64,000 nucleotides of DNA from Candidatus Omnitrophica bacterium UBA6215 (GCA_002421665.1 DISH01000007.1:17278-81277), one strand, 5' to 3'; shown: positions 10,498 to 39,516, counted from the stretch's first letter. The notes: generated by a model not told the origin, from the letters alone. Program-made: numbers and translations.

Positions 10498-10527
10498 TAT
10501 ATATTTATTAAGAACCCCTCTCCGGTC

Positions 10528-11910
10528 TTATTTAGAACCCAGCTTCCTTAAGTTGCCTCCCTTATGCAAGTGCTCCTCAATCTGCTCAAGGGTAAGTCCC
10601 TTGGTCTCAGGAACGCATAAATAGCAGTATACTATACCAGCCAAACAGACCGCGGCGAACAGCCAGAAGGTCCCGGCCTTGCCGAGTTTATCGGTCAGGG
10701 TCAGGAAAGTCGCCGCCACCAGCATGTTGAAACCCCAGTTGGCGACAGTCGCCAAACTCATAGCCCTGCCGCGAACCTTTAACGGATATATCTCGGCGAT
10801 GATAAGCCAGAATATAGGGCCCAAGCTTATTGCAAAAGAGGCTATATAAAACAGGACGCTGCCCACAGCTATCCACTTAAGCATCCCTGACAACGTCGCC
10901 GTATTGAAAGCAAAACCGAGGACAGCCAGGCTCAAGCACATGCCTGTCATGCCGATATACAACAGAGGCTTACGGCCAAGTTTGTCCAAAAGCCAGATGG
11001 CGACCAAGGTCATAAGGACGTTCACGGTCCCCACGCCGACGGTAGCCAGTATGGCAACCTTGTGGGAACCGAATCCTGCAAACTCAAATATGGTAGGCGC
11101 ATAATATATTATGGTGTTTATCCCGGTCGCCTGCTGGAAGAACGCAAGCGCGATGCCGACTACAAGAGCAGGCCTGACCCACGGCTTGAATACCTGGTCC
11201 CAGGAACATTCTTTTTCGGCAGCGGTCCTGGAGATGCCTTCGATCTCCTTCTCGACCGATCCTTCGGTATGCGTGCGCCTTAATACGTCTTTAGCCCGGT
11301 CTATAAAACCGCGCGAGACAAGCCAGCGCGGGGATTCGGGCAGGAATATCATCCCTATCAGAAGGATGGCGGCGGGAACCGCGCCGAACGCGAACATCCA
11401 ACGCCATTCGTCCTTGCCGAGGGTAAGCGCATAATCAACCAGGTATGAAACCACGATACCGCACGTGATCATCAGCTGGTTCAAGGACACCAACGCTCCC
11501 CTGACATCGGGCGGGGATATCTCGGAAATGTAAAGCGGGGCAACATAAGAGGCCACGCCTATTGCAAGCCCGATCAAAAAACGAAAGGCGATCAATAAAG
11601 GTATGCTGGGAGATAATGCCGCACCGATGGCGCCGGCGGAAAAAAGTACGGCTGTGAGCACAATGCTGCGCCGGCGGCCCAGGCGATCGGCCATAGCGCC
11701 GCTGAACGCTGCGCCGATGACCGCGCCCAACAAAACCGCGCTTACCACCTTTTCCACAAGAACAGCACTAAGGCTGAACTGGTCTTTGATATAGAGAATA
11801 GCGCCCGAGATGACCCCGGTATCGTAACCAAAGAGCAGGCCGGCTAAAGCCGCAACAAAAGCGATAATGTAAATAATAAAAAGGTTATTATGCCCTTTAG
11901 GCTCTGCCAT
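10528..11910 (-). CDS. MFS sugar porter family transporter
   Basis: 460 aa, 12 TM, with sugar-porter motifs (DRLGRRRSI, PESPRWL, PETKG). Confidence 0.85.
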   Translation of the reverse strand: MAEPKGHNNLFIIYIIAFVAALAGLLFGYDTGVISGAILYIKDQFSLSAVLVEKVVSAVLLGAVIGAAFSGAMADRLGRRRSIVLTAVLFSAGAIGAALSPSIPLLIAFRFLIGLAIGVASYVAPLYISEISPPDVRGALVSLNQLMITCGIVVSYLVDYALTLGKDEWRWMFAFGAVPAAILLIGMIFLPESPRWLVSRGFIDRAKDVLRRTHTEGSVEKEIEGISRTAAEKECSWDQVFKPWVRPALVVGIALAFFQQATGINTIIYYAPTIFEFAGFGSHKVAILATVGVGTVNVLMTLVAIWLLDKLGRKPLLYIGMTGMCLSLAVLGFAFNTATLSGMLKWIAVGSVLFYIASFAISLGPIFWLIIAEIYPLKVRGRAMSLATVANWGFNMLVAATFLTLTDKLGKAGTFWLFAAVCLAGIVYCYLCVPETKGLTLEQIEEHLHKGGNLRKLGSK

Positions 11911-11925
11911 ATCCTTTTCCCCCGT

Positions 11926-13203
11926 TTAGAAGGTTACGCCCACACGTGCGCCGACCACAAGGGCGTCATCTATATCCTTGTCTCCGCCGTGGGGATTGAT
12001 TATATACTGGAGATCGGGCTGGAGATACAGCCACTTGTTCACGGCGATCTTATAGGTAGCTTCTACGACCATCTCATATTTCTGGCGGGTACCGCCGGAA
12101 TCCGTCTCATACTTGCCCAGCTGTCTGCTCCATTTGCCGTAGGCATAACCGATACCGGCGATGTCATCCCCTCTTCCGGGTATAAGCCCCTTATAGGTCA
12201 GGCCCGCATCTATAAAGAAAGGCATCTCGTTAACATCATCCGGCTGCCATGTTACCACAAAGAACGGTGTGAACCCTTCGTCGGCCGTGCCGGACTCGCG
12301 GTAAAGCATCTGGTCTACATGCAGGTAAAGACCGTAGTTGCCGTGGCGCCTCTTCGGGTCCAGCCCGCTAAGGGCGCAGGAATTGCCGTTCTCGTCCTCA
12401 TAAAGGTCGGTAAAACGGCCCGAGCTGTAAAAAAGGCCGAGCTTATAATTGCCCGGCATGCCCTTGGAACCTTCAGCCTGGTTATTCAGGTAACTGAACT
12501 CCTGGATAAAGAGCAGGCCCTTGTTCCTGCGCCAGGAGAAATCCGCGCCGTGCGCGTCCATGCGAGCAATCTTCGGGTCCTGGTGGTAGATACCGCCCTT
12601 CCAGGTAAAAGAATCCGTCGGGCTCGCCCTGAGGCGCGCGCCCCAAGTCGCCGTAGGATAAGTTGTGAAGAAAAAGTTTATCGGCAGGTTGATCGGGCAT
12701 CCGTCGATAGAGTTCGTAAGGAATATCCAATACAACGGTGACTGGGCAAAATCGTCTCCTGTCCCAAGACGGCCCAACTTAAGGCTTACTTTATCATCAA
12801 GCATAGCCTGCTCAAGGTACAGGTTATATAAACGTATCTCTTCCGAGCCGTAAATGCTCGAAGGCGGGAAGCGGTTGCCTATATCGTCGCTTAAGTTATC
12901 GCCCTGGCGGTATACGCCGGAGGCATGGGACTGCAGGCCGGCCAACCCGCATAGCTTCTCCATGTCAAAATTCACGTCAAGGCCGGTGGAAGAGTCATAA
13001 CGGAAACGGCGGCCATCCTCTCCGCCGGATACGTTCCCCAGAAGGTCTGTCACGTAAGTTCCGGTAAAATCTATTCCCTTATCGGAAAGCTTCTGCCTTT
13101 GCCCCGCCCAATCGCCGAGCAAGTACTGGCCGTCCCACCAAGACCCGAAAACGCAGGTTTGGGACACAAGAAGCAAAAGTATGGCGAAAAATAATTTTTT
13201 CAT
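11926..13203 (-). CDS. oprB: Carbohydrate-selective porin, OprB family (outer membrane)
   Basis: 425 aa with signal peptide, beta-strand-rich sequence ending in aromatic-X-F (VGVTF). OprB-like N-terminus (WWDGQYLLGDWAGQRQKL). Confidence 0.6.
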   Translation of the reverse strand: MKKLFFAILLLLVSQTCVFGSWWDGQYLLGDWAGQRQKLSDKGIDFTGTYVTDLLGNVSGGEDGRRFRYDSSTGLDVNFDMEKLCGLAGLQSHASGVYRQGDNLSDDIGNRFPPSSIYGSEEIRLYNLYLEQAMLDDKVSLKLGRLGTGDDFAQSPLYWIFLTNSIDGCPINLPINFFFTTYPTATWGARLRASPTDSFTWKGGIYHQDPKIARMDAHGADFSWRRNKGLLFIQEFSYLNNQAEGSKGMPGNYKLGLFYSSGRFTDLYEDENGNSCALSGLDPKRRHGNYGLYLHVDQMLYRESGTADEGFTPFFVVTWQPDDVNEMPFFIDAGLTYKGLIPGRGDDIAGIGYAYGKWSRQLGKYETDSGGTRQKYEMVVEATYKIAVNKWLYLQPDLQYIINPHGGDKDIDDALVVGARVGVTF

Positions 13204-25188: not shown

Positions 25189-25539
25189 TGGTGGAGGCGC
25201 GGGGATTCGAACCCCGGTCCTTAAGTCACTCGCTAAGAGCTCCTACGCGCGTTTCCTGCAATTTATCGTCTCGCCGATACGGTCGCGCAAGCAGGCCCGC
25301 TACCGTAAAGGCCAGCCTTTGTTGTATCTTGTCCCTTCCCCCCAAAGGCGAGAAGAAAGTGACCAGCCTGCTGCGGCGTCACATCCGGCCTCGCAGGCAA
25401 GACCGGAGGACGTGCTGCAATTAAGCAGCTAGCGCGAGTTCATTCGCGTTTAACTTTGTTGTCAGGTTTTAACGAGGCCACCTGACACCCTCGGCGCGCA
25501 ACCCTTAACCCGCTTCTTAAGTCGAAACCTTTCGCCCCC
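25189..25539 (-). ncRNA. ssrA: tmRNA (SsrA), ~351 nt
   Basis: Minus-strand RNA begins GGGGGCGAAAGGUUUCGAC and ends GGGGUUCGAAUCCCCGCGCCUCCACCA (tRNA-Ala-like acceptor with G3-U70 and T-arm). Internal tag ORF ends ...GCG AAU GAA CUC GCG CUA GCU GCU UAA (..ANELALAA*). Directly downstream of smpB. Confidence 0.85.
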
Positions 25540-25992
25540 TTATTCTTTTCCGCGTATCTCGCGCCTTAACTCCCTGTCGGAATCGCGGCGTTTGATATCT
25601 TCGCGTTTGTCATAGAGCTTCTTGCCCTGGGCCAGGGCCACTTCTACCTTCGCCATGCCTCTCTTGAAATATATCTTAAGGGGCACGAGCGTCAGCCCTT
25701 TCTGCGTAAGCCGCCCGAGTATCTTCCTTATCTCGGACTTATGCATAAGCAGCTTGCGCTTCCTCTTAGGCTCGGGGGCAAATCTCCCGGCCTGAGGATA
25801 AGGCGTTATATGCATATTATAAATAAATATCTCGTCTTCGTCTATCCTGGCGAAACTGTCCTTGAGGTTGGCCTTTTTGTCCCTCAACGACTTGACCTCG
25901 GACCCTTGAAGCACTATACCGGCCTCAAAAGACTCGAGGATATGATAATTGTGCCTGGCCTCCCTGTTTGTCGCAACCGTCTCGTCCGCCAT
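25540..25992 (-). CDS. smpB: SsrA-binding protein
   Basis: SmpB signature (TVATNREARHNYHILESFEAGIVLQGSEVKSLR...) and C-terminal basic tail. Start placed at internal Met (MADETV). Confidence 0.9.
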   Translation of the reverse strand: MADETVATNREARHNYHILESFEAGIVLQGSEVKSLRDKKANLKDSFARIDEDEIFIYNMHITPYPQAGRFAPEPKRKRKLLMHKSEIRKILGRLTQKGLTLVPLKIYFKRGMAKVEVALAQGKKLYDKREDIKRRDSDRELRREIRGKE

Positions 25993-26098
25993 TTTAGTCG
26001 GTAATAATATAACATATACGCTCAAAATAAGGCAACCTTTTTATGGTTGCAAATTCGGCCGATAATCGGTATAATTTACTAAGTTTTTAAAGAAAACC

Positions 26099-28126
26099 AT
26101 GGAAGATAACCTTAAGACATTCCTTTCGCTGGTCAAAGTCAACCGGTTCGAGGAAAGATATTCCAAAGATATTACCCCGGATACCTATTTCGGTTTTCCC
26201 CTGGAAAGTATAATACAGGCCGAAAAACGGCTTACTTCCCGGGAAGAACCCTCCGTAGGATATTTCTCTATGGAATACGGCTTGGGAACCAGCATATACA
26301 ACAGCTATAAGTCTTCCTCCCCGCTCTCCGAACCCAATACCCTTCCCAGGCAGAACATATTTTCCAATATGAGGATAAGGGACTACTATTTCCAATTCAG
26401 CATCGGAGAACGCATGATCGACCTGCCGATATACAGCGGAGGCCTCGGCGTCCTCGCGGGAGACAGCCTGAAATCCGCGGCGGACCTTAACGTCTCCCTG
26501 GCCGCGGTCGGTATTCTTTGGAGAAAGGGGTACTTCAAGCAGAATTTCTGGTTTAAGGACGGGCAGGTTCCCGAAGAACTTAATTGGGACCCCTACTCAT
26601 ATCCCGGCCTGATCCCCCTGGACACCGTCATAACCTTGCCTCTTAAAAACGGCGATCTGCTCCTTAGGCTGTGGAAATATTACGTATACAGCTATGACAA
26701 AAAACACACCGTTCCTCTTATACTTTTGGATTCGGACGTGGAAGGCAACCCGCCGGAATCGAGAGGTTTGACGGACCAGCTCTACAGGAGCGATAACTCA
26801 TACTTCAAGATAATGCAGAGGGTCATATTGGGTATCGGCGGCATCAAGGCCTTCGGGGCCCTCGGATATAATATACACAAGTATCACCTGAACGAGGGAC
26901 ATGCTGCAATGGCGCTTGTCGAGATGGCCGACTCGCTTGACAAAAGCAACCTTGCTTCGCTGGAGAACAATTTTGTCTATACCTGCCATACGCCTGTGGC
27001 TGCAGGACACGACCGTTTCCCGATAAAAGAACTCGAGAAGATACTGCCTGACGAAAATATAGACTTCATAAAGAAGAACGGCGCCGAAGACAGCACCGCT
27101 AACCTGACCGTCCTGCTCCTGAATTGCTGCAGGAGCGTAAACGCGGTCGCCAAGAAACACGGCGAGATCACGCGGCTGCAATTTCCCCAATTTGCGCCAA
27201 AGATACAATCTATAACCAACGGTATCCACATTCCCACCTGGATATCCGATGACATAGCGCAGCTTCTCGAAAAATACAGCAACAGGACCGGAACCTGCTC
27301 ATCAGGGCATATGGACCTTCTCGACCTCGAGAATCTAAGGGCAGATGAAAACTTCAGGGCGGACCTCTGGAAAGCCCATCAGGCCAATAAACGCAAGTTA
27401 TCGGAAATATTCGCGAACTGGGACATAAAAGATAACTGCTTTACATTGTGCTGGGCAAGAAGGATAGCGGCTTATAAGAGGCCAAGCCTGCTTTTTCAGG
27501 ACCCGAGACGCCTGGTTGAGATAGCCGAAAAATACGGCCCTATACAGATAATCATAGCCGGTAAGGCCCATCCGAACGACAGCCTTGTGGGAACATATAT
27601 CAACAACATAATGAACACGATAGATTCCCTGGGTTCGAAAGGTTCCGTCCTGAGGATAATAATGCTGGAAAACTATGACATCTTCTTCGGGAAGCTCCTT
27701 ACCAGCTCCGTAGACGTATGGTTGAACAATCCCCTCCCCCCGTTCGAGGCATCCGGGACAAGCGGGATGAAAGCAATACTCAACGGGGTCCTGCAATTGT
27801 CGACCCTCGACGGCTGGGTGGTAGAGGCAGCCGACGCATCCGAGAACCCCGACGCCAACATAGGTGAGATATTCGGCTACAGGCATAATAGCGGCGACCC
27901 TATCGGTAACGAGCTTGACCTGCGCCTCGATTCGGACTCGGCTCAGTTGTATGAAGCCCTTGAAAAGATGGTCAAGCTTTATTACGAGACGGATAAGAAC
28001 GGAAAAACAGATATCGGTTCAAAATGGATCGATATTATGTTAAACTGTATCAAACAAAGCCATTATTTCAACACGTGCAGGATGGTCGGTGAATACCGGG
28101 ACAGGATGTGGTTCGTAAAAGATTAG
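26099..28126 (+). CDS. glgP: Alpha-glucan phosphorylase (GT35; PLP-dependent, archaeal/short-type glycogen/maltodextrin phosphorylase)
   Basis: 675 aa with PLP-Lys motif EASGTSGMK and a phosphorylase core (GGLGVLAGD). Confidence 0.85.
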   Translation: MEDNLKTFLSLVKVNRFEERYSKDITPDTYFGFPLESIIQAEKRLTSREEPSVGYFSMEYGLGTSIYNSYKSSSPLSEPNTLPRQNIFSNMRIRDYYFQFSIGERMIDLPIYSGGLGVLAGDSLKSAADLNVSLAAVGILWRKGYFKQNFWFKDGQVPEELNWDPYSYPGLIPLDTVITLPLKNGDLLLRLWKYYVYSYDKKHTVPLILLDSDVEGNPPESRGLTDQLYRSDNSYFKIMQRVILGIGGIKAFGALGYNIHKYHLNEGHAAMALVEMADSLDKSNLASLENNFVYTCHTPVAAGHDRFPIKELEKILPDENIDFIKKNGAEDSTANLTVLLLNCCRSVNAVAKKHGEITRLQFPQFAPKIQSITNGIHIPTWISDDIAQLLEKYSNRTGTCSSGHMDLLDLENLRADENFRADLWKAHQANKRKLSEIFANWDIKDNCFTLCWARRIAAYKRPSLLFQDPRRLVEIAEKYGPIQIIIAGKAHPNDSLVGTYINNIMNTIDSLGSKGSVLRIIMLENYDIFFGKLLTSSVDVWLNNPLPPFEASGTSGMKAILNGVLQLSTLDGWVVEAADASENPDANIGEIFGYRHNSGDPIGNELDLRLDSDSAQLYEALEKMVKLYYETDKNGKTDIGSKWIDIMLNCIKQSHYFNTCRMVGEYRDRMWFVKD

Positions 28127-28235
28127 GCGGGCCGAAGTGGCGGAACTGGCATACGCGCTACGTTCAGGGCGTAGTGACCGTAAGGTCTTGAGAGTTCAAA
28201 TCTCTCCTTCGGCACCATAAAAAGGAGGCCGGAAG

Positions 28236-28706
28236 ATGGCTATACCCGCAAAGCTCAAGAAGTACCTGGACTCCAATAAGGTCAAATATAAAACCCTCAA
28301 ACACAAACTGGCATACACTGCCCAAGAGATAGCCGCAGCGCAGGAAGTCCCGGGAAAACAGGTCATAAAATCAGTCCTGGTAAAAACCGATAAAGGTTTT
28401 GCGCTCGCAGTCCTGCCGGCTATACACCTGATAGACCTGAAAAAACTCAAGTCCGCGCTCAAATGCAAATCCCTGAAGATCGCCACCGAAAAAGAGATGG
28501 AAAAGACCGTTCCCGATTATAAGCCGGGAGCTATGCCTCCATTCGGCGCCCTCTTCGGGCTCGATACCGTAGCGGACAAGATCCTCAAAGAAGACATAGA
28601 AATAGTATTTAACGGCGGCACTCATACCGACACGGTCAAGATGAAATATTCCGATTTCGAAAAACTCGCCGGGCCAAAAATCGCCGACTTCGGAAAACAC
28701 ATCTAG
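28236..28706 (+). CDS. YbaK/ProX-type aminoacyl-tRNA deacylase domain protein
   Basis: 156 aa YbaK/EbsC-like fold (...KSVLVKTDKGFALAVLP...GAMPPFG...). The next gene starts immediately at the stop. Confidence 0.65.
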   Translation: MAIPAKLKKYLDSNKVKYKTLKHKLAYTAQEIAAAQEVPGKQVIKSVLVKTDKGFALAVLPAIHLIDLKKLKSALKCKSLKIATEKEMEKTVPDYKPGAMPPFGALFGLDTVADKILKEDIEIVFNGGTHTDTVKMKYSDFEKLAGPKIADFGKHI

Positions 28707-31700
28707 ATGGAAAGCGGGAAACGCGAGCTTTCCAGGATCTCCAAAAGACTTACGGACTTCCTCCAGGAACTCCCCCGCCCCGGTTATCTTTGGCCGTATT
28801 CCGTAACTTATCTTCTTGATAAATTCGGCAAAATAAAAAGAGGTAAGTTCAGATATGCCACGCCGGGACAGCACAATTTCGTGATGTCCGAAATAATCGT
28901 CAGAAAAGCCCTCGCCAAGATCATCTACCGGAATACCGCATGGCTCGAGAGAAGCTACAGGAGGGAAAAGAGGTCTATAAACAAGAGGCTCTGCACCCTT
29001 TACGGGACGGTCGAAGACTGTCAAGCCGACGATATCTCTGTAACACCTGGTGCCTTGCGCGAGATATTCCTGCTTGAAAAACGCAAAACCAGCCTGGACA
29101 AGATGCTTGCCGACAAACGGCTTGAAATACAAGGCAAGGTCCTGCATGATTTCATGTCCATATTCGAGGATGATATCAGGAAGGCCAGCAGCATAGAGGA
29201 CTTCACGGACTTTTCGCAGATATTTGCGAACCTAAGGGACGGGGTAAGATCAAACGATAACTATAAAATAAATGAGGCCGTAAACGCGCTTTCGGAAAAG
29301 CTGGTAGTCCCTTCCGAACTTCTTTCCAGAAGGATAATAGGCCACCGCTTGGGCGACCATGAACTCAGCCTTCTGGGAAAGTTCACCAGGGAACTTGATA
29401 ATTACCCGGAATACAAGGATGCCGTCGCCAACCTGAGGGATTTCGGGAGGTATCGCAAGGCAGTCCTGTTAATAGACCAGCTCCGCAAAAGCAAGGATAT
29501 CCTTATCCCCCCTCCTTTCGTAAAAGGCACAAAAGCCCGGATATATGAGGGTCTGACCCGATCGATGCGCCTTTTCTTCGCGACGATGATAGCGATAATA
29601 CCTACCCTCACCGTGTACGGCATCGGGGGAATAAGCCATCTGCCGTTATGTACTTTCATGTGGATGGCAGCTTGTTTCGGGGTTACGTACTATATATCAT
29701 GGCAGCCCTCCCATAAAATGGCCCTGTTCCTGGTCAGCCTTATGGTAAACACACCCGGGCATAAAATGCTCCCGGAGCTCGGAAAATACATAGACTCCAA
29801 CTATACGGAAGACAAGCCGCTTAAAATATCCTATGTAACGGCTAAAAAAAGCGATACGGAATCGGATGCCGAGATAGCCATATTTTATTTCAGGAAAACC
29901 ATCGAAGCCCTGAGGCCGACCCTCGAGACTTTCGGGAAAAAGATATTGCTCGTCATCACTTTCTGGTCGGATACGAAAAATGACAGCATCATAGAATATG
30001 AGGTAAAAAGGCTCGAAGAATTTTCCAGGGAACATCCCTATGATAACCTTGAATTCCTTTACCTGAACAGGTCTAAAAGCGAATGGTTCGACAACACAAA
30101 GCTCGGCATGATAAGAATAGGCGGTTTTGCCGGTAAGGTTGGCGGTATAGGCAACCTGATGCACCTGATGAACACCGGCCAGACCAAACCTTATCTCTTT
30201 ACCGACGAAGGCTTCGAATTCACCCAGAACAGGAATAAACCCCTTATTTGCAGGGTGTGGTCGACGAACCTCGTGAAGGCACTGGGCGTCGACACCGGTA
30301 AGGAGCAGATAACCTCCGAACGGGCCGCCGAACGTATCTTGCGCGGCGACGATATAGATATAGACCCGTCCAGGATATCCGAGTTCTGCGTTATCATGGA
30401 CGATAAGAACGAGCTGTATGCCGGCGAGCTTGAAAAAGCGCTTGCAATACTCCTGCACCCGGAAAACGAACACATAGTGATCGCCCAGCCCCATATAGCC
30501 ATCACCCCTCCTTACCTCAACGGCAAGGCCAAGGAAAGCATCTACTGGAAGATAATGAAGAATGAGCGCGATATAGAGAACGAGATAAACATGAAAGTCA
30601 TCTCCGGGATATACGGCAAGGAGCGCGCATTCTTCGGCAAAGGTTTCGCCAGGACAAAGATATATTACGACAGGGTATTTAAACCTGAGACCCTCTCTCC
30701 TGCCAAGGTTTTGTCCCATGACTGGCAGGAATCGATATTCAGCAGGAACTGCGAGGGCCTTTTGGGTGCCAAGAGGTTTATCGTGAAGAAGGTCTCGGAA
30801 AAACCAGGTTCCGCAGTCCTGAGGATAGACCTTGCCAATACCACAAGGTTCGTACGCCTTGAGAGGGACGCGCAAAAAGACGTACTCGTCTATCATCTCG
30901 ATATCGCTTCCGGGGAATACCGGTTCGTCAGGAAATTCCGCCGCCTGGAAAACCTGGATATGGACGAGGTGGTCAAATACACGGCGAATTTCTACAATAA
31001 TGCGGTCATTGTAGGCGAACGCGACCAGCTGCATTTCGTCACTTACATTATCCGCGACGTCAGGTGGCTTATCGGCGATTTCCAGGCCATAAGGACCCTT
31101 ATATCCTACCGCAGGATACTCACATATTACCACCAGTGGCACCTTAGCTGGGCCATCGGAAGGCTCCTCTCCGATCCCATGCTTTTCTGTTTCATAATAT
31201 TAATGTGCCTCCTTTGGATATTCCCGTTCATCCTTGTAGTGCCGACTAACTCAAATGCGTATTGGATAACTCTTGTCCTATCCTTCTTCGGGATCATATT
31301 TGTCCACAGGTTCATCGACCCCGTAAGGTATATCTTCCGCAGGGCGCGCGCCGAAGGCAGACCTATACGCCCCCTCTCCTTCTCTCTTGAGCTCGTAGAC
31401 CAGTTCTTCGACAGCATCCTCCAGGCGATGGAAACTACCGTGTCTTCTCTGCAGTTAACGGTCATAAAACCGCTGCTTTCATATTCGATATACAAATCAG
31501 AAAAAATCAATAAGGTCCCGGAATGGAAAACTTCCAGTACCCTTTCACTTATGGAGCTCGAGGGCAGGATAACCAGGAACGAGTTCAAGGACATCAGGAT
31601 AGAAGAAGCCCAGAAGATGGGCCTTATAATATCCGCCATAGCGGCAATATACATAATCACGGGCATAGCGCCGATAACGGTTTTCGGCATATTCGGTATA

Positions 31701-34700
31701 CTGCCTTGGGCAGGTTCGCTTATCTTCGGCCGTTACGCTATCTCCGCTATAGGTAAAGTGCGCGACCTTAATACCCGCAAGGCCACTATACAGGAAAGGA
31801 CAAAAAGGCTGTATGTCATAATATCCGCTATCCTTCTCCTGCTGGTAACATTGTCCGCGCTCAGGGACATCCCTAGCTACAATAAACACGACCTTATTAA
31901 ATTCGTCCTCCCGGAATCAAGGGAAAGGTTCAGCTATTCCGCCGAAGAAGAGAGGCTCCTTGGAAAGATGCGCAAGGACCTCGAAAAGATCGAGTTCTAT
32001 ATACCCGACAGGATAGTCGACAGCAAGCTCTCTCCCGTGCTTAAATCCCGCGAGGGAAAGACAAAGCTGATGGCCGAGGTCCTTCCCGTAGAGGATAAAC
32101 TCTCCAGAGCAATACCTCTCTTAAGGCCCGTCACGCGGGATGCTGTAGCTCCCATAATAACCGAGGCGGTCTCCCCCCTCGAAGAACCGGAGCTCTCCGA
32201 CCTGACGGCTTTCAGGGATTTTTTCTCCGCTTCCCACAAGATGGGAAAAAGAAGGCTGTTCACTTCTACTGCCCTCGCCGGGACAAAAATAGCGCTCTCC
32301 ATGCAGTTCTCCGCCGCGGCTATAGCGATAACTGCCGTAGACAGGGTCGAGGGATTGGGCATGATAGCGCGTTACGGCAAGGAATACCCGTGGTTCAATG
32401 TACTCGACCCCCTTACGGGACAGTTCTGGTTCGAGACAAGCAGGGAAACCGGGCTTTCAATGAAAGATATAGCGGAGGTATTCAGGTGGGAGGACACAAA
32501 GAAATACTGGAATGCCGATTTTGCCAAGAAGAAGGGCATCTGGAAACGCTATGAATACCTCCAGAGAGGAATATTATCCCTGTACTATTCCGGATTAGAG
32601 GTCAACGAGCAGAACCTTAGGAAATTCTTTGCTGAATACGACAAGATGCCGCAATTCAGGAAAAAATACCCGGCAGTCCCTCTCAAACCTTTCCGGCTTG
32701 TACCTGAACCGGCAAAGACCCTTCTGCAGCTCATTGGAACGGTAACTTTCTATGTCCCTGTAATCGAGATCATCCCCGCAACCGAGATACCTTTCGGGAC
32801 TATATTAGGCATAGTGGAAACGGTGGTAGCCGGTAAACAAGGTAAGCTGGAATACCTTATAGTAACAGGCATGAAGAACGGCTTGTCCACCGAGGAAGTA
32901 ATGGAACACCTCGGCTTCGACTATGTAAACTATGCATGGCGCAAGACGCGTATCCCGTCAGAAATATATGATGTCAACCGGCAAAGGTTCCTCGCCGATT
33001 ATAAGAAAAAGGGCGTCGATAAGGTTGACTACGAAAGAAGCGACATAAAACTTATATGCATACTCTCCGATTACAGGATGGCCCTCGATACCCGGGAAAC
33101 CCTGGGGTATGAAGAGAAGCCGTCGAATCCCCAGATCAAGGAGACGGCGGACGCGCTGCGCGGATATCTTGTAGACATATGGAACGACGTACAAAAACGT
33201 TATCCGGAGCTCGAAGACGGCATAAAGGCAAAAGGTATAGGCGAATACCTTGCTATTTCATATTACGTGATGTCACGCAGGTATGGATGGGGTCTCGAAC
33301 AATACCTTGATTTCCTTGGCCCGCAGCTAAAGAAGGCCGTAGAGTTAAAGGATAAAGGCATCACTCTCGATGATAGAACGATATATGAGATCATGTTCAA
33401 TAACGAGATACTCCAGAAGGGCCTCTATGACGATCCCAGACTCCAACCGGAAAAGAACGCTGTCTTGATATCCCGCCTGGACAGGCAGATCGAAAAACAA
33501 TCGGATGCCGGCAAGCAGATGACAGGATATATCTGGCTGTCTTCCCTTATGCTGGATGCCGAAAAGAACGGCATAAAAGTTGATCCCGGCGAATTCGCCT
33601 TGAAGTTCATGGAGATATACGAGACGGGGCTGTCGCTGGGCTATACAGAAATACCATGGTGGGAAAAATGCGGATACCTTACCCTGATATACTACAAGGC
33701 CGGGTTCGGGACCACTATGGAACTTTTCGACTACTTCAAGAACGAATTCAGCATGTCCAACACGTGGCTCAAGGATAAACTTCCTCTCCCGGAAGGGTTC
33801 GTACACGGTGTAATGGAAACTACTTATAGGGACATGGGGTACGGCAGTGACCAGGCTGCAATATTGGAAACGCAGACTCCTGAGAAACTTAAGTTTGACA
33901 TGGCATATGAGTTCCTGGCAGCGCTCGTGATAGAGACAGAAACTAACAAACTCAAAATTTCACCCGAAGACCTGGCCTCGGAGTTCATGGCCTTTTACAG
34001 GACCGGATCCGCTTCGGGGTACAACAGGATACCATGGTGGAACATAAGCGGTTACCTGATGCTTGAATACGAAAAGAACAGGGCATTTCACGGATGGGAG
34101 AACATAGACGATTATTTTGCGTACTACACTCCGTTGTTCGCATCCATAAACAAGTGGTTTACGCAGGACCTAAGCCTTCCCGAAGGATTTGAATATGAGA
34201 ACGCTTTCCGCCTCGAGATATTGAAACGTAAGCTGGATCATGATCCCAGGCATGCAAAGGATGGCAGCCGGTCATTACAGGTCATTAAAGACACGGCGGA
34301 GAACCAGACCCCCGTCATCAAACGGTTCAACGCCTATATGACACTAGCCAGGCTTAAAGAGGACTATGCCCTGGATTTCGGGCGGCAACTGGACGATACG
34401 GAAGTCCTGCATTTGGCGGGAATACTCACGACCTTCTGGACCGAACTGCCGGTCAAATATCCGAACCTCCCCCTCTTCGTTCCCGGTATCATTGAAAAGA
34501 TAGCCATTAATTCTCTCGCATTCAATGACTACCGCGATGTTGAAAAAGCTGCTTTCCTCCAGCAGATAAACAGTCTCTGGGATTTAAAAGTGCCCGGGCC
34601 GATAGAATCGGGGATAAGAAAAGAGGTTGAAGAGAAGACAGGCATAGACCTGGATGATGAACGGATCCTTCATTACACCACCTTACAAACGGCCATCGGC

Positions 34701-36233
34701 ATACTCGACAGCCTGGGCGCAGCGGTCATCGAACCGGACATAGTAAGGACCTTACAGCTACGCCAGGCGATCAGGTCCGTTTCTAAACAATATCCCGACC
34801 TGGAGCTGCTCAAACAAGGCAATGCCGAATGGATGGCCGTGTACGCCCTGAAAAAGAAACTGACATTTTATGAGCTCCAGGAGAAATATCTTAAGCCGAT
34901 ACAGCAGATATATAAAGACGCGGCAAACGCCTACTTCCCGAGAGAGATAGATATCATGACCGGGAAACTTAAGGATATAAACGAAAGGGACATCGGGGTA
35001 ATAACTGATATATACGGGCTGAAGGACAAGGGTTTCGCGGCGCAGCCTAAGATAAGCGCGAACGACGTTATCGTAAATGTCATATGGTATCACCTGCAGA
35101 GGGCTTACGATATAGGCATACCCGAGAAAGACATCCCGGTATTCTTCAGGGTATTAAGAGCGGTAAAAGAGAATGACCTCGCGCACTTGGTCTCGATAGA
35201 GTCGGCGGATGAGCTTTCCAAATGGCAGGAAAAGATGGATTCCGCTTCATTTCGCCTCATGACTCTTTATAATGACCCGCGGTCAAGGAAAAAATTCAAG
35301 TCCCCGCCGGACTTCCTTTACAAGTTCCTGTCGAACAGCACCGCGGTCAGGGAGAACCCGGCTATCAGCTCCAAGTTAAGTTCGATCAGGTCCGCGGACG
35401 AAAAGGTCGCCGACTCGCTTGAATTCCTCTGGCCGCTTCTTATGACACTGGAAAATATCTCCCCTTCGGTCATGGAGAATATAGTATCCAATATGAGCTA
35501 TGTGACATCCTCATACAAGGAGCTACTGGGCATGCAGCCTGAAAAGGACTCTGCCGTTGAGTTCAATGAGGCGGTCAATGTCTACCTGACCGGGGAATAC
35601 GGAAAGTTCCTCATAAGGCAAAAAACGAACTACCAAAGGGCGCAGTCTTCGTGGTGGACAAACTACATAGTAAAACTCAGTTACAGGAGGCTGTTTAACG
35701 AGAACCTTGATGAGGCGGAAAGGACAAACCGCAAAATATTGAAGAACATGCAGGTATGGTTCGACAGGGAAAAACTTAAGAACCCGCATAGCTATGTCCT
35801 CAAAAAGATAGTGGAAAACCTTATCGAACACGGTTCGATAAAAAGGATCGGGCTCATGAGGCCTGTCTATAGCGGCAAGAACGAATACAAAAACCGTATA
35901 CTCAGGCTCAACAGATATATTAACCGGCTCGATTCGGAGATAGCCCTGTTAAAATCCGAAAACCGCTATTCTGCCGACCTTGAAAAAATATCGGCCAAAG
36001 CAAAAGAAGATCTCGCGGAAATCGAAAAATCTCCTTCTGAACTCACAAAAAAAGCCATAGAAGCCGAGAGACTCCTGCTTTTCTACAGACAGGTACATAA
36101 CAGGGATTCTTTGTTCCTTACGGCTATGATAGCTGCCGGAATGATAGGTACTATACTGCTATCCCGCCTTATTCTTTTAGTCAAAATAATGTTATCCGGC
36201 ATTGTGCGCCGCCTGCACCCGCTAGAATCCTAG
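28707..36233 (+). CDS. Giant (2508 aa) polytopic membrane protein. Core is OpgH/MdoH- or cyclic-glucan-synthase-like processive GT2 glycosyltransferase flanked by TM bundles. Followed by ~1450-aa alpha-helical extension with tandem ~125-aa repeats and a C-terminal TM anchor.
   Basis: Uninterrupted 7.5-kb ORF. TM clusters at aa ~295-345, ~785-850, ~930-1010 and at the C-terminus. Between the first two clusters: DxD (VIMDDKNE), LSHDWQES (compare OpgH LSHDFVEA / BcsA TED) and RDVRW (compare OpgH RDRRW / QxxRW). Repeats FMEIYETGLSLGYTEIPWW... / FMAFYRTGSASGYNRIPWW... at ~33606-34360. Confidence 0.5.
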   Translation: MESGKRELSRISKRLTDFLQELPRPGYLWPYSVTYLLDKFGKIKRGKFRYATPGQHNFVMSEIIVRKALAKIIYRNTAWLERSYRREKRSINKRLCTLYGTVEDCQADDISVTPGALREIFLLEKRKTSLDKMLADKRLEIQGKVLHDFMSIFEDDIRKASSIEDFTDFSQIFANLRDGVRSNDNYKINEAVNALSEKLVVPSELLSRRIIGHRLGDHELSLLGKFTRELDNYPEYKDAVANLRDFGRYRKAVLLIDQLRKSKDILIPPPFVKGTKARIYEGLTRSMRLFFATMIAIIPTLTVYGIGGISHLPLCTFMWMAACFGVTYYISWQPSHKMALFLVSLMVNTPGHKMLPELGKYIDSNYTEDKPLKISYVTAKKSDTESDAEIAIFYFRKTIEALRPTLETFGKKILLVITFWSDTKNDSIIEYEVKRLEEFSREHPYDNLEFLYLNRSKSEWFDNTKLGMIRIGGFAGKVGGIGNLMHLMNTGQTKPYLFTDEGFEFTQNRNKPLICRVWSTNLVKALGVDTGKEQITSERAAERILRGDDIDIDPSRISEFCVIMDDKNELYAGELEKALAILLHPENEHIVIAQPHIAITPPYLNGKAKESIYWKIMKNERDIENEINMKVISGIYGKERAFFGKGFARTKIYYDRVFKPETLSPAKVLSHDWQESIFSRNCEGLLGAKRFIVKKVSEKPGSAVLRIDLANTTRFVRLERDAQKDVLVYHLDIASGEYRFVRKFRRLENLDMDEVVKYTANFYNNAVIVGERDQLHFVTYIIRDVRWLIGDFQAIRTLISYRRILTYYHQWHLSWAIGRLLSDPMLFCFIILMCLLWIFPFILVVPTNSNAYWITLVLSFFGIIFVHRFIDPVRYIFRRARAEGRPIRPLSFSLELVDQFFDSILQAMETTVSSLQLTVIKPLLSYSIYKSEKINKVPEWKTSSTLSLMELEGRITRNEFKDIRIEEAQKMGLIISAIAAIYIITGIAPITVFGIFGILPWAGSLIFGRYAISAIGKVRDLNTRKATIQERTKRLYVIISAILLLLVTLSALRDIPSYNKHDLIKFVLPESRERFSYSAEEERLLGKMRKDLEKIEFYIPDRIVDSKLSPVLKSREGKTKLMAEVLPVEDKLSRAIPLLRPVTRDAVAPIITEAVSPLEEPELSDLTAFRDFFSASHKMGKRRLFTSTALAGTKIALSMQFSAAAIAITAVDRVEGLGMIARYGKEYPWFNVLDPLTGQFWFETSRETGLSMKDIAEVFRWEDTKKYWNADFAKKKGIWKRYEYLQRGILSLYYSGLEVNEQNLRKFFAEYDKMPQFRKKYPAVPLKPFRLVPEPAKTLLQLIGTVTFYVPVIEIIPATEIPFGTILGIVETVVAGKQGKLEYLIVTGMKNGLSTEEVMEHLGFDYVNYAWRKTRIPSEIYDVNRQRFLADYKKKGVDKVDYERSDIKLICILSDYRMALDTRETLGYEEKPSNPQIKETADALRGYLVDIWNDVQKRYPELEDGIKAKGIGEYLAISYYVMSRRYGWGLEQYLDFLGPQLKKAVELKDKGITLDDRTIYEIMFNNEILQKGLYDDPRLQPEKNAVLISRLDRQIEKQSDAGKQMTGYIWLSSLMLDAEKNGIKVDPGEFALKFMEIYETGLSLGYTEIPWWEKCGYLTLIYYKAGFGTTMELFDYFKNEFSMSNTWLKDKLPLPEGFVHGVMETTYRDMGYGSDQAAILETQTPEKLKFDMAYEFLAALVIETETNKLKISPEDLASEFMAFYRTGSASGYNRIPWWNISGYLMLEYEKNRAFHGWENIDDYFAYYTPLFASINKWFTQDLSLPEGFEYENAFRLEILKRKLDHDPRHAKDGSRSLQVIKDTAENQTPVIKRFNAYMTLARLKEDYALDFGRQLDDTEVLHLAGILTTFWTELPVKYPNLPLFVPGIIEKIAINSLAFNDYRDVEKAAFLQQINSLWDLKVPGPIESGIRKEVEEKTGIDLDDERILHYTTLQTAIGILDSLGAAVIEPDIVRTLQLRQAIRSVSKQYPDLELLKQGNAEWMAVYALKKKLTFYELQEKYLKPIQQIYKDAANAYFPREIDIMTGKLKDINERDIGVITDIYGLKDKGFAAQPKISANDVIVNVIWYHLQRAYDIGIPEKDIPVFFRVLRAVKENDLAHLVSIESADELSKWQEKMDSASFRLMTLYNDPRSRKKFKSPPDFLYKFLSNSTAVRENPAISSKLSSIRSADEKVADSLEFLWPLLMTLENISPSVMENIVSNMSYVTSSYKELLGMQPEKDSAVEFNEAVNVYLTGEYGKFLIRQKTNYQRAQSSWWTNYIVKLSYRRLFNENLDEAERTNRKILKNMQVWFDREKLKNPHSYVLKKIVENLIEHGSIKRIGLMRPVYSGKNEYKNRILRLNRYINRLDSEIALLKSENRYSADLEKISAKAKEDLAEIEKSPSELTKKAIEAERLLLFYRQVHNRDSLFLTAMIAAGMIGTILLSRLILLVKIMLSGIVRRLHPLES
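33606..34360 (+). repeat. Two diverged tandem protein-level repeats (~125 aa each) inside the giant ORF (IPWW..GYL..LPEGF module)
   Basis: Aligned by eye: FMEIYETGLSLGYTEIPWWEKCGYLTLIYYKAG...LPLPEGF versus FMAFYRTGSASGYNRIPWWNISGYLMLEYEKNR...LSLPEGF. Preceded by a weaker third copy. Confidence 0.6.
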
Positions 36234-37763
36234 GTCCCTGTCAAGACTCCTGTAATTGACCGCTTCGGAAATATGCTCCGCGCTTATTACCTCTTTGCCT
36301 GAAAGGTCTGCTATGGTCCTGGCTATCTTGAGGACTTTATCGTATCCGCGGGCGCTTAGGCCCAGTTCCAGTATAGCCAACTTTAACAACTCGGACGCTT
36401 CTCTATCGGTAACGCAATATTTTTCTGTATCTTTCGACCCTAAACGGGCATTACAGGATATAGAAATTCCTTCGTACCTGCATTTTTGGATAGCCCTGGC
36501 ATTCTCAACCCTTTGCCTTATAGTCTCGGATGACTCTCCGCGGCTTTTACCCGACATCTCTTTGTATTTAAGCGAGGGGACTTCCAGATGTATGTCTATC
36601 CTGTCAAGCAGCGGGCCCGATACCTTTGAAAGATAGCGCTGGATCATAGGCGGCGTACAGTGACATTCCCTCTTAGGGTCCGTAAAATAGCCGCACGGGC
36701 ACGGATTCATTGCCGCTACAAGCATAAATTTAGCCGGGTACCTTAAGCTGGTAGAAGCCCTGGATATCACCACCTCCCCTCCTTCCATCGGTTGGCGAAG
36801 CGCCTCAAGGGCATCCCTCCTGAACTCAGGCAATTCGTCAAGAAACAGGACCCCGTTATGCGCGAGACTGATCTCGCCCGGCCTGAGCCTGGTCCCTCCT
36901 CCTACGAGTCCCGCATATGAAATCGTGTGGTGCGGCATCCTGAACGGCCTTCGGGATATGAGATGATTACCAGAATTTAGGAGCCCGGAGACACTATGCA
37001 CCTTGGTCGTTTCAAGCATTTCCTCGAACCTCAGATCGGGCAATATAGTTATGAGCCGCTGCGCAAGCATCGTCTTGCCCGAACCGGGAGGGCCTATCAT
37101 TATCACGTTATGCCCGCCTGCCGCAGCCACTTCAAGGCCGCGTTTGACATGCCATTGACCCTTAACATCGCTGAAATCCATCTCCTGGCCGGCGCCTGCT
37201 GCGTAACAATCTTCCGTCCCTGCGGTAGTATCCGAGGGCGCTATGCCCGAAACCCCCTTTAGGAAATCGACCACATCCCCTAACCTTCGGGCCGGGTATG
37301 TCTTTATCCCGCGCACCACTCCCGCCTCTTTTGAGTTCCCTTGCGGTATGATTATAACGGTATCTTTTCCGCTTATACCGGGTGCTGAGATCATAGGCAA
37401 CATCCCGTTTATGGGCCTCAAACTTCCATCCAGTGAAAGCTCTCCGCAAAAGACCTTGTCTCCCACAAGACACTGATCCAACTCCCCGGTTGCCGCCAAT
37501 ATCCCTACAGCTATCGCCAGGTCATACCCCGCACCTTCCTTGCGCAAATCGGCGGGGGCGAGGTTGATAGTTATCCTCTTCGGAGGGAACTTAAACCCTG
37601 AATTTTTTATCGCGGATATTACCCTGTCTTTGCTCTCTTTTACCGCCGTATCGGCGAGGCCCACGATATTAAAACACGGGAGTCCGCCCGTTATATCCAC
37701 TTCAACCTCAACTTTCCTGGCTTCGATCCCCCATAGACTCCTGCTCTCAACTTTAGCAAGCAT
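36222..37763 (-). CDS. comM: Mg-chelatase-like AAA+ ATPase YifB/ComM family
   Basis: Start at internal Met (MLAKVES...). Lon-like N-domain, Walker A GPPGSGKT, ChlI-type C-terminus. Confidence 0.85.
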   Translation of the reverse strand: MLAKVESRSLWGIEARKVEVEVDITGGLPCFNIVGLADTAVKESKDRVISAIKNSGFKFPPKRITINLAPADLRKEGAGYDLAIAVGILAATGELDQCLVGDKVFCGELSLDGSLRPINGMLPMISAPGISGKDTVIIIPQGNSKEAGVVRGIKTYPARRLGDVVDFLKGVSGIAPSDTTAGTEDCYAAGAGQEMDFSDVKGQWHVKRGLEVAAAGGHNVIMIGPPGSGKTMLAQRLITILPDLRFEEMLETTKVHSVSGLLNSGNHLISRRPFRMPHHTISYAGLVGGGTRLRPGEISLAHNGVLFLDELPEFRRDALEALRQPMEGGEVVISRASTSLRYPAKFMLVAAMNPCPCGYFTDPKRECHCTPPMIQRYLSKVSGPLLDRIDIHLEVPSLKYKEMSGKSRGESSETIRQRVENARAIQKCRYEGISISCNARLGSKDTEKYCVTDREASELLKLAILELGLSARGYDKVLKIARTIADLSGKEVISAEHISEAVNYRSLDRDLGF

Positions 37764-37765
37764 TG

Positions 37766-38143
37766 TCAGCTCCAGAATGCATCCGTTATAATCTCTATGT
37801 TCTTTATATTGTCTTTGCCGTCGAACAGGACCGATATGCAATCAAACCTAGAATCCCGCTCAAGCATATTGTTCTTCAACTGGAAGAACAATGCGGACCT
37901 GCGTATATGGAATTTCTTCGCCTCGTTTATCGTTTCATAAGGTAACCCATGTTCGTCATCGTTGCGGGAACGGACCTCGACAAAGACCAATACGTCGCCA
38001 TCTTCGGCTATTATGTCTATCTCCCCGGATTTACACCTGAACTTTCGCGCGATTATACGGTATCCGCGGGCCGCGAGCAAATCTGCAGCGCGGTCTTCGG
38101 CGAGGTCCCCTAACTGCCTATTCCCCATCCCCAAACGCTTCAA
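37766..38143 (-). CDS. yraN: YraN family (UPF0102) endonuclease
   Basis: 125 aa, ...[21 protein letters not shown]... PD-(D/E)xK motif. Classic neighbour of comM/yifB. Confidence 0.75.
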
Positions 38144-38466: not shown

Positions 38467-39495
38467 TTAGAACCTGTAATACATCCCGAGGGAGGTTATC
38501 GAACCCGAGTATTTTTGGGCGGGATAATTGGACTTGTTCTGGCGGTAGGAATAATTCAAACCCAGGGTAGCGTTCTTCGTAATATCATAATAAAGGGATG
38601 CGCTGGTCACCCAGCCCCTGTCGTGTTCACGGGTCGTGGGATCATCCGGTATGGTCCTGCCCGAATAGTACCTGAACTGCCTGTAATACGACGCATAGGC
38701 GCTAAGCTTCTTGGTTATAAGGTATATCGCGGAAGCGCCCAGCTTGGTGGAATCATAATCATAATAATCCAGGTAACTGTCATTGGAGTCGTTCTTGAAG
38801 TATTCCCCGAACACCTTGAACATGGATTTCTTCATATACATGCCCAGGCTGTAATCCAGGGTGTTCCTCCTGTCTACCCTGTCATAATCAGAGAACCCGC
38901 CCCAACCGTTGAAGGCTTTTCTGTCGGAGAAATTCTTGTAATAATACTGATATTCGAAGGCGTGGAAGAAATTGTTGGGCAGCTTTTGCTTGATGACGAT
39001 GCCGGCCTTATCGCCGACATATTCGCCGTTATCGTTCTTCTGGTACTCCATCATCTCTATGTCATTATACGCGTTCACGGTTATGCCGCCGAAGAGCCTT
39101 CCCTCGAATCCTATTTTCAGGTCCGTATCTATAAGGCTGGCTGAAGTCGCCTCCCAGTAAGTTATGTCGTGGGTGGAAGCTTCAAAAAAGAAATCCCACC
39201 TGCCGTTCATGGGATATGATATGCTTCCGTCGATTATGAATTCCGAGAATGTGTCGGCTTTTCTCTGGGGATCCAGGAAAACGTTGTCGTCATACCCTTG
39301 CGCGGCGGATACCAGCAGCTTGGTCTTGTACCTCTTGTGCTCGCGGAGGGTCTCAACTTTTTTATATGACCTCTCTTCGGCCCTGCCGAGGAACTTTTCG
39401 GTCGTCTCTTCTTCCTTCATATCCGCTGCGCCGGCAAAACCGCCGAAGAATGCCATAGCGACAAACACAGCCGCAACAAAGTTGAGTTTTTTCAT
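38467..39495 (-). CDS. Putative outer-membrane beta-barrel protein (uncharacterised)
   Basis: Signal peptide (MKKLNFVAAVFVAMAFFGGFAGA), alternating amphipathic beta-strand pattern, C-terminal ...YYRF. Confidence 0.45.
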   Translation of the reverse strand: MKKLNFVAAVFVAMAFFGGFAGAADMKEEETTEKFLGRAEERSYKKVETLREHKRYKTKLLVSAAQGYDDNVFLDPQRKADTFSEFIIDGSISYPMNGRWDFFFEASTHDITYWEATSASLIDTDLKIGFEGRLFGGITVNAYNDIEMMEYQKNDNGEYVGDKAGIVIKQKLPNNFFHAFEYQYYYKNFSDRKAFNGWGGFSDYDRVDRRNTLDYSLGMYMKKSMFKVFGEYFKNDSNDSYLDYYDYDSTKLGASAIYLITKKLSAYASYYRQFRYYSGRTIPDDPTTREHDRGWVTSASLYYDITKNATLGLNYSYRQNKSNYPAQKYSGSITSLGMYYRF

Positions 39496-39516
39496 AAGAT
39501 GCGATCCCATCATACG

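Follow-up and report, generated by a model that had tools for sequence, protein, structure and literature searches.

A four-gene grouping around a giant Cgs/BcsA-like synthase candidate in Candidatus Omnitrophica: a probable lineage-specific juxtaposition rather than a glucan module

The Omnitrophota are uncultured, very small bacteria that are thought to be host-dependent. In Candidatus Omnitrophica bacterium UBA6215, a stretch of 64,000 nucleotides (nt) (GCA_002421665.1 DISH01000007.1:17278-81277; hereafter the window) carries, at positions 26099-36233, a gene for an alpha-glucan phosphorylase (glgP), a ybaK-like gene and a giant open reading frame (ORF), which an earlier annotation made from the sequence (the original prediction) had taken for a possible operon and a self-contained module of glucan synthesis and turnover. 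The analysis reported here leads to a different picture: in the light of its relatives, the cluster is a juxtaposition peculiar to one lineage, not a module for making and breaking a glucan, and we consider it likely that its four genes, one of them a tRNA gene, form a historical grouping, probably co-transcribed, in which the giant protein works alone as a synthase of the Cgs/BcsA-like kind.

All three ORFs lie on the plus strand, as does every feature located below unless stated otherwise: glgP at 26099-28126 (675 amino acids, aa), ybaK at 28236-28706 (156 aa) and the giant ORF at 28707-36233 (2508 aa). The ORF calls thus bear out the positions, the common orientation and the tight spacing originally described, as well as the abutment of the ybaK stop on the giant start (28706/28707), since the stop-start junction at 28704..28709 reads ATC TAG ATG GAA, with TAG at 28704-28706 followed directly by the ATG at 28707. 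The cluster had, however, been counted as three genes, whereas the 109-nt spacer between glgP and ybaK (28127-28235) is almost entirely occupied by a tRNA-Leu(CAG) gene at 28131-28217, called by ARAGORN and by Rfam RF00005 (49 bits, E 1e-9; gathering score 29); the cluster therefore consists of four genes, with the three ORFs as placed. The true spacers measure 4 nt from the glgP stop to the tRNA, 18 nt from the tRNA to ybaK and 0 nt from ybaK to the giant ORF.

By profile and motif, the first gene is an ordinary GT35 alpha-glucan phosphorylase, in agreement with the original prediction. Its product scores 405 bits against TIGR02094 (E 6.6e-121, cutoff 191.7), with residues 108-671 falling on profile positions 13-598 of 600, and it also matches PF00343; the nearest solved chain is 9l6i, an 'alpha-glucan family phosphorylase' (E 8.9e-68). 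The translation contains EASGTSGMK, and the pyridoxal phosphate (PLP)-lysine motif of GT35 phosphorylases is defined as EASGTxxMK. When compared with the TIGR02094 family (the short archaeal and bacterial type of GT35), the protein lies above the curated cutoff, aligns end to end, keeps the PLP lysine and shows no notable difference. GT35 enzymes cleave alpha-1,4-glucans.

The third gene encodes what its matches identify as a free-standing YbaK/ProX-type aminoacyl-tRNA editing-domain protein. It covers PF04073 (tRNA_edit) in full (positions 1-123 of 123; E 2.9e-28, 98.9 bits, cutoff 25.5), so that the YbaK-like identity given before also stands. Like the free-standing (INS-like) trans-editing proteins it matches this profile over its full length, and it matches 3op6, its nearest solved chain (E 4.6e-36, deposited as 'uncharacterized protein'), from end to end. 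It differs from YbaK proper in scoring below the cutoff of the YbaK_EbsC equivalog for Cys-tRNA(Pro) deacylase (TIGR00011; 53.1 against 153.25 bits) and in lying nearer to 3op6 than to E. coli YbaK (2dxa, E 5.9e-8). The core lysine of the editing fold and the GxxPP loop are both kept, and the lysine of VIKSVLV aligns to that of VYKTLLV in 2dxa, which we take to be the catalytic one. Homologues number 323, most of them from Omnitrophota; the label 'Ala-tRNA(Pro) deacylase' that they carry at JGI is automatic.

The history of the grouping can be read from the loci of close and more distant relatives; seven genome loci are mostly labelled Candidatus Omnitrophota. The loci compared were L001, L006, L007, L009, L010 and L012 (the clade of the window), L013 (an outgroup), and L014, L015, L016, L018, L002/L011 and L003-5. 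The order smpB / glgP-tRNA-ybaK-giant / comM is kept in all six of the clade loci, and in L006 and L007, the two that reach that far, queC/D, murI and the amidase gene are colinear as well. The four-gene order is found only where the flanks too are colinear, namely within a genus-level clade, and it is conserved because these genomes are closely related. The tRNA-Leu(CAG) is present in every clade member and stands at the matching position in L001, L006, L007, L009, L010, L012 and L013, with a compensatory A-U to G-C change in the anticodon stem among these relatives.

The outgroup L013, which a midpoint-rooted neighbour-joining tree places outside the clade, keeps the queE-queC-queD-racemase-amidase-tmRNA-smpB flank and glgP-tRNA-Leu-ybaK, with amino acid identities of 77% (glgP) and 83% (ybaK), whilst past ybaK it has a 66-nt gap filled by an inverted repeat with 27-nt arms and then the 3' end of comM; tblastn detected no trace of the giant gene in this locus. 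(The inverted repeat was considered as an intrinsic terminator and dropped, as the terminator scan does not call one.) In L014, whose YbaK is 76% identical, autotransporter genes fill the slot between ybaK and comM, and neither glgP nor a tRNA occurs within the 865 nt upstream of ybaK; in L015 and L016, more distant ybaK homologues stand alone. Since its occupants differ, the ybaK-comM slot behaves as a variable site of which the giant gene is one occupant. Elsewhere, a giant homologue of 56% identity (L002/L011) lies between an S4_2 gene and an NAD kinase gene, and one of 38% (L003-5) between TPR genes and a CHASE2-GGDEF gene, and no partner gene is common to these two contexts and that of the window clade. 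The conservation of gene order beyond general colinearity that a functional module would show is thus seen in none of these loci. Under our interpretation, glgP-tRNA-ybaK would be the older unit and the giant gene an occupant of the variable slot in one genus-level clade, which would make the grouping of the four genes historical, not functional.

Two observations on the same loci can be added. In L015, a more distant member of the Omnitrophota, about 1 kb containing era separates a tRNA-Leu(CAG) at 7923-8007 from the ybaK homologue downstream (9001-9471), which suggests that tRNA-Leu and ybaK form an old, loose linkage predating the adjacency of either glgP or the giant gene. Moreover, the labels of the metagenome-assembled genomes of this single clade conflict (L006, L007, P0003 and P0053 appear as Candidatus Omnitrophota, 'uncultured Planctomycetia' or 'Dehalococcoidales'), and some of the bins are probably mislabelled or misbinned.

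The synteny bears directly on the functional explanation, that of a dedicated operon: the giant synthase would produce a glucan, the phosphorylase would act on that same polymer by degrading or trimming it, and the YbaK-like protein would be an accessory. Co-orientation, tight spacing, the absence of a convincing terminator, an order conserved in seven genomes and the Cgs-like glycosyltransferase (GT) module of the giant ORF described below all speak for such an operon, as does the fact that Cgs itself joins a synthase to a phosphorylase domain. The chemistry, however, is mismatched: GT-A synthases of the Cgs fold are inverting enzymes and are expected to give beta linkages, whereas glgP belongs to the alpha-1,4-specific GT35 family (TIGR02094). 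It is not of the type found in Cgs, where the length-controlling phosphorylase is a GH94 domain of the beta-1,2 type (PMC10901819). A GH94 domain (PF17167/PF06165-type) was found neither in five overlapping segments of the giant ORF at E values up to 10 nor in the PDB by a full-length profile. Furthermore, L013 has glgP-tRNA-ybaK and no giant gene, giant homologues occur elsewhere with neither glgP nor ybaK as neighbours, and the order is conserved only where the entire flank is colinear. We therefore regard a dedicated operon as very improbable. The idea of a self-contained glucan module thus finds no support; the conservation of the three-gene synteny in relatives, which the original prediction had proposed as its check, is confined to the colinear clade and largely fails beyond it; and of the operon, in itself an ordinary one, there remains a probable transcription unit, judged by its layout, and not a conserved functional module.

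The other half of the picture concerns the giant ORF (28707..36233), which was called as a multi-domain membrane protein of 2508 aa and has full-length homologues. Among 5.8 billion protein clusters only six homologues were found, five of them full-length (94, 74, 74, 74 and 56% identity) and the sixth a protein of 1,611 aa (38% identity, 45% query coverage) that is without residues ~1115-2020. An exhaustive hidden Markov model (HMM) search of 1.84 billion representatives with the N-terminal module collected 44 proteins, several of which are 4,700-7,400 aa long. Conventional annotation returns nothing: searched whole and in five overlapping pieces, the ORF has no usable Pfam or NCBIfam match and no Pfam GT2 family at threshold (the best is PF13632, at E 0.19), and the whole ORF has no PADLOC match. 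Neither the single sequence, nor a seven-sequence profile of the N-terminal module, nor a full-length profile retrieved anything from the PDB by sequence beyond a keratin coiled coil, and a tblastn search with the GT module against plasmids and phages gave no match.

A match emerged from an alignment of 19 sequences, comprising residues 354-1039 of the giant protein and its relatives. The profile built from it finds Cgs/NdvB in the PDB with E 1.2e-6 and aligns to it motif by motif, pairing IMDDKNE with TLDADT, QP with LQP, GKG with GKG, SHDWQES with SHDLLEG and RDVRWLIGDFQ with RQHRWARGDWQ. An AlphaFold model computed on the same alignment (mean predicted local distance difference test, pLDDT, 85.7; predicted template modelling score, pTM, 0.86) superseded an earlier run on a shallow seven-sequence alignment (pLDDT 49.5, weak Cgs match at E 0.03), and its closest structures in Foldseek are those of Cgs (8rf9, E 2.9e-9, query-normalised TM-score 0.53 over 738 columns; 8rfe, 2.8e-8), followed by BcsA (5ej1, 4e-5) and hyaluronan synthases (4e-5 to 6e-4). 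The GT-A glycosyltransferase domain of the Cgs/BcsA type that model, Foldseek and profile delimit spans aa 354-806 (29766..31124).

The catalytic residues of Cgs can be paired with residues of the giant protein. In Cgs, uridine diphosphate (UDP) is coordinated by D527 and D624, D739 serves as catalytic base and R773 is part of the RW motif (PMC10901819); with the Cgs numbering of that study, the pairs are D565/D624, K567/D626, D672/D739 and R786/R773 (giant protein first). The HMM alignment to TLDADT places the DxD equivalent of the giant protein in IMDDKNE (30393..30413), where the canonical D-x-D is replaced by D565-D566-K567, with lysine for the second aspartate. The catalytic-base motif SHDWQES (30714..30734) aligns with LSHDLLEG of Cgs and includes D672, whilst the RW motif of processive synthases lies in RDVRWLIGD (31053..31079; R786 and W787). 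Across the family, D565 is invariant (19 of 19 members), at least 90% of the 19 retain S-H-D with D672, and R-x-x-R-W-x-x-G-D occurs in all 14 members that cover the region; GKG and the proline of QP are retained in nearly all members, down to about 25% identity. Thirteen members have D-[DN]-K-N, and the six distant ones have D-x-D/N. Motif conservation and the fold match together justify the label 'synthase', which the original prediction had applied to the entire protein, for about 27% of it (profile E 1.2e-6, fold E 2.9e-9, TM 0.53). Taken together, sequence and model suggest that the giant ORF represents a rare, undescribed family of Cgs-related, membrane-integrated processive glycosyltransferases that is blank in standard annotation. 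A term search of one paper on Omnitrophota giant proteins (10.1101/2023.11.21.568195) did not return the word 'glycosyltransferase', and in another (10.64898/2026.06.07.730766) the term was returned only in the context of capsule and lipopolysaccharide, with no such module.

Around the catalytic domain, the protein is organised as follows. Residues 1-280 (28707..29546) form a soluble N-terminal region with no family match and no recognised fold, whose conservation extends to P0006 and, at a weaker level, to P0007, P0008 and the 953-aa ORF of L018. Two membrane helices are predicted ahead of the GT domain, at aa 289-307 and 312-332 (29571..29702), from a hydrophobicity scan and from long helices in the first model. 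A beta-rich insertion at aa ~690-767 (30774..31007), between the catalytic base and the RW motif, is present in 13 family members and has five strands in the model (model residues 339-391); it was considered as a PilZ-like c-di-GMP receptor, and this was dropped, as no RxxxR...DxSxxG motif was seen by eye. Past the GT domain, model and hydropathy predict about five transmembrane (TM) helices together with interface helices at aa 807-1052 (31125..31862), with hydrophobic peaks at aa 827-845, 852-870, 974-992, 990-1008 and 1034-1052. Hydropathy scan and models thus give two plus five, that is, seven helices, in addition to a predicted C-terminal anchor at aa 2474-2492 (36126..36182; hydrophobicity 2.2) that is followed by a K/R-rich tail.

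Between the seventh and eighth predicted TM helices extends a region of ~1,420 aa (aa 1053-2473, 31863..36125) with no Pfam or PDB match and no recognised fold. It is predicted to be extracytoplasmic because the number of helices before it is odd and because there is a mild positive-inside bias near TM7, with six K/R to two D/E before this helix and four to four after it. The region contains an internal duplication, detected by BLASTP, of units running IPWW...LPEGF (aa 1627-1698 and 1753-1828, 33585..34190); the two segments are 41% identical over 64 aa (E 2e-13) in a targeted comparison, although self-BLAST of the whole protein showed no repeats. The C-terminal module (aa 2021-2508, 34767..36230; ~490 residues) is conserved in P0006, in the 2,300-aa proteins P0031/34/36/39 and in the giants P0018 and P0027, and includes a coiled-coil-like stretch at aa 2387-2449, to which corresponds the weak keratin coiled coil that is the sole PDB match of the full-length profile.

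From these elements a working mechanism may be proposed. The cytoplasmic GT-A domain would take a nucleotide sugar, with D565 binding the nucleotide, D672 acting as base and R786/W787 holding the acceptor, and the growing beta-linked glycan would be threaded through the helices that follow the GT domain. The seventh helix would place ~1,400 residues outside the cytoplasm, where they would be re-anchored by the last helix and presumably hold or process the polymer.

As regards expression, a sigma-70-like promoter candidate, TTGCAA-17-TATAAT, precedes glgP at 26047..26075 and matches 10 of 12 consensus positions; its -10 block, AATCGGTATAAT, is invariant in all seven relatives, whilst the remainder of the smpB-glgP spacer has indels. 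Among these is a 25-nt insertion with a hairpin (GCAACC-N7-GGTTGC; window 26030-26060), seen only in the window and L006, which replaces the -35 region of the other genomes by a different, equally good hexamer. A simple scan found between the genes of the cluster no convincing plus-strand terminator of the kind that the original prediction had named as evidence against an operon, nor any after the promoter candidate as far as the convergent comM; the weak terminator-like matches all lie inside ORFs. With a common strand, short spacers and no convincing internal terminator, the four genes probably form one transcript that starts at the conserved promoter candidate ahead of glgP.

A second signal possibly lies inside the 3' end of glgP, where synonymous sites are conserved in excess at 28004..28091 (13 of 16 codons invariant against a glgP background of 30.5%; shuffle P = 0.006 for the maximum window) and where nucleotide invariance over the last ~120 nt reaches 0.91, equal to that of the tRNA. 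Within 28004-28091 no sigma-70 match of at least 9/12 was found; TTCAAA(28019)-17-TAAACT(28042) is invariant in all seven genomes and matches only 8 of 12 consensus positions. RNA structure was dropped as an explanation of the constraint, folding being weak (z -1.98). The constraint may reflect a nucleotide-level signal overlapping the coding sequence, either an embedded promoter or a processing site for tRNA-Leu. Before ybaK, a Shine-Dalgarno sequence GGAGG (28224..28228), read directly from the sequence, is conserved in relatives although the length of the tRNA-ybaK spacer shifts by indels. At the other end of ybaK the zero-length junction ATCTA(G/A)ATG is kept in all seven clade genomes, the stop varying between TAG and TAA, and translation of the giant ORF is probably coupled to that of ybaK at this point.

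Several points weigh against the reading of a historical grouping with a self-sufficient synthase. Co-transcription and coupling are read from the layout of the genes, and the topology from a hydropathy scan, the helices of the model and a mild charge bias. The gap in L013 could be a deletion and not an ancestral absence, and the distance of L013 exceeds that between the two subclades only slightly. The junction between ybaK and the giant ORF has persisted over ~25% nucleotide divergence whilst spacers nearby gained indels, and it could mark a real link between the two genes within the clade. This leads to the suggestion that they are a functional pair kept by coupling, the YbaK-like protein for example proofreading for an ORF of 2,508 codons or having an aminoacyl-ester activity linked to the polymer. 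The abutment of TAG or TAA on ATG in seven of seven genomes, with indels in both the tRNA-ybaK and the smpB-glgP spacers, and an editing fold that retains its core lysine and GxxPP loop are compatible with such a pair. On the other hand, the same database holds 323 homologues of ybaK and six of the giant gene, in L013-L016 there is a ybaK but no giant gene and in L002/L011 and L003-5 a giant gene but no ybaK, and we know of no precedent for a functional pairing of this kind; we hold it to be most unlikely.

A further point of the same sort is the lysine in place of the second aspartate of DxD, since an enzyme with D-D-K could be inactive or use another donor chemistry. Carried to its end, this would make the giant protein a catalytically dead scaffold or adhesin that keeps only the fold of a synthase, in line with the presence of the lysine in 13 of 19 members, the alignment of the priming tyrosine of Cgs, Y694, with Glu626, and the ~70% of the protein that has no recognisable fold. 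Against this stands the conservation described above: D565 in every member, D672, GKG and the proline of QP in nearly all, and RW in each one that covers it. Catalytic residues kept to ~25% identity form a pattern that is hard to explain without catalysis, and metal-independent GT-A enzymes that use basic residues do exist. A dead scaffold thus appears unlikely, and an active synthase remains our preferred interpretation of the giant protein.

Relatives of the GT module show other combinations of domains. It is embedded in giants of 4,762-7,397 aa (P0010, P0017, P0018, P0024, P0027, P0042 and P0045) and fused to six-hairpin glycosidase-type domains, GDE_C in P0010 and PF10091 in P0047, which fits a glycan-handling role for the family; P0010 additionally carries a methyltransferase. 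In L018 (GCA_035715825.1, 5091-15044), the synthase homologue of a distant organism is split exactly within the beta insertion into adjacent ORFs of 953 and 2,347 aa, preceded at a distance of 2 kb by a glgC-like NTP_transferase gene. That gene, together with the glucose-1-phosphate that GT35 phosphorylases yield, also weighs against a purely historical grouping, as it would agree with a loose metabolic coupling in which the glucose-1-phosphate from glgP feeds the donor of the synthase and the two enzymes act on different polymers; the fusion in P0010 to a glycogen-debranching-type domain, GDE_C, points the same way. However, L018 is one distant case only, in which 2 kb and another ORF separate the two genes, none of glgA, glgB, glgC or galU is among the annotated genes of the window, and the adjacency is lost in L002/L011 and L003-5. 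Such coupling therefore seems improbable to us, and the synthase is better seen as working independently of glgP.

The plus-strand island from glgP to the giant ORF is flanked on both sides by minus-strand housekeeping genes. To the left stand queE, queC, queD, a racemase gene (murI), an amidase gene, tmRNA and smpB, the last two forming the divergent boundary at 25189..26025 (minus strand; tmRNA by Rfam RF00023 with 170.6 bits and by ARAGORN with the tag ANELALAA; smpB by PF01668, E 3.7e-61). To the right, an intact, convergent gene for a comM/yifB-type Mg-chelatase-like ATPase (36222..37841, minus strand; PF01078, PF13541 and PF13335 matches) overlaps the giant ORF by 12 nt and is followed by FecR-like and Mla genes. 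Horizontal acquisition of the giant gene was considered on grounds of composition and dropped (GC content 0.48-0.49 against 0.49-0.53 in the flanks), the skew changing at the cluster only because the strand switches; an association with defence systems was likewise dropped, since PADLOC has no match for any of the three proteins.

In L001 (10406-12438) and L013 (9537-11560), only the C-terminal ~120-130 aa of comM are left, the gene being cut by an island whose first gene encodes a large serine recombinase (Resolvase/Recombinase/Zn_ribbon_recom domains); the island of L001 also has a GmrSD-like gene and helix-turn-helix regulators, and comM seems to be a hot spot of integration in this lineage. 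Adjoining comM in the window, a 348-aa ORF without Pfam match (38467-39513, minus strand) has conserved counterparts beside comM in L006 and L014, and at the end where L007 is cut off its C-terminal 65 residues find a match. An Rfam pass over the whole window at gathering threshold reported the tmRNA and three tRNAs and missed tRNA-Leu(CAG) 28131-28217, which reaches its 49 bits when searched alone; this looks like a filter effect for a tRNA with a long variable arm. At 7195-13203 (minus strand), a carbohydrate cluster comprises a 756-aa GT4 glycosyltransferase, a GH130 beta-mannoside-type phosphorylase, a sugar transporter of the major facilitator superfamily and an OprB carbohydrate porin; as a genuine sugar module it is a stronger candidate than the grouping of glgP with the giant gene. 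The first 4000 nt (1-4000) have a GC content of 0.37-0.43 against ~0.50 elsewhere and contain a 660-aa ORF without Pfam match (1123-3105); they may be foreign DNA.

The locus carries a caution for annotation, as tightly packed, co-oriented genes with suggestive names (a phosphorylase by a synthase) turn out to be a lineage-specific juxtaposition and a seemingly empty spacer to be a tRNA gene. At the same time, a giant ORF that is blank in standard annotation becomes readable as a putative processive glycan synthase of the Cgs type whose donor-binding motif is altered. As a candidate envelope-polysaccharide machine whose module recurs in giant proteins of the Omnitrophota, it offers a testable handle on how these cells build or decorate their surface, and it presents glycosyltransferase enzymology with a natural variant from D-x-D to D-D-K. 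More speculatively, and with less confidence than doubt, one may see in it the founder of an active, undescribed Cgs-related class, with a lysine for the metal-binding aspartate of DxD (and hence metal-independent donor binding), a beta domain inserted next to the active site and an extra membrane helix exporting ~1,400 aa of new fold, which would hold or remodel an as yet unknown beta-glycan at the cell surface of Omnitrophota that are ultra-small and attached to hosts.

When considered from a comparative point of view, the giant protein has affinities with several membrane-integrated synthases. OpgH/MdoH, which has SHDxxE and RDxRW-type motifs and a layout of GT plus membrane helices, is mentioned as a lead only. 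With BcsA and the hyaluronan synthases, the giant protein shares a predicted cytoplasmic GT-A domain with its own translocation channel and the RW motif, although the query-normalised TM-scores are lower (0.27-0.39) and no PilZ domain was found in it. Cgs has six membrane helices, with all of its domains cytoplasmic, and a priming tyrosine at Y694 (PMC10901819), whereas the giant protein has seven predicted helices and a predicted C-terminal anchor, and has Glu626 at the position of Y694 (the loop alignment being uncertain at 12% identity). It further differs in having D-D-K where Cgs has D-A-D and in the beta insertion of ~80 aa between base and RW motif, and neither segment nor full-length profile searches gave a sequence match to a cyclase (six-hairpin) domain in the giant ORF. 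Despite an identity of only ~12%, Cgs is nevertheless the best match by both profile and fold: each is a very large, multi-domain protein of the inner membrane (predicted as such for the giant protein), with an N-terminal domain and two helices ahead of the GT, and with a GT-A domain docked under membrane helices.

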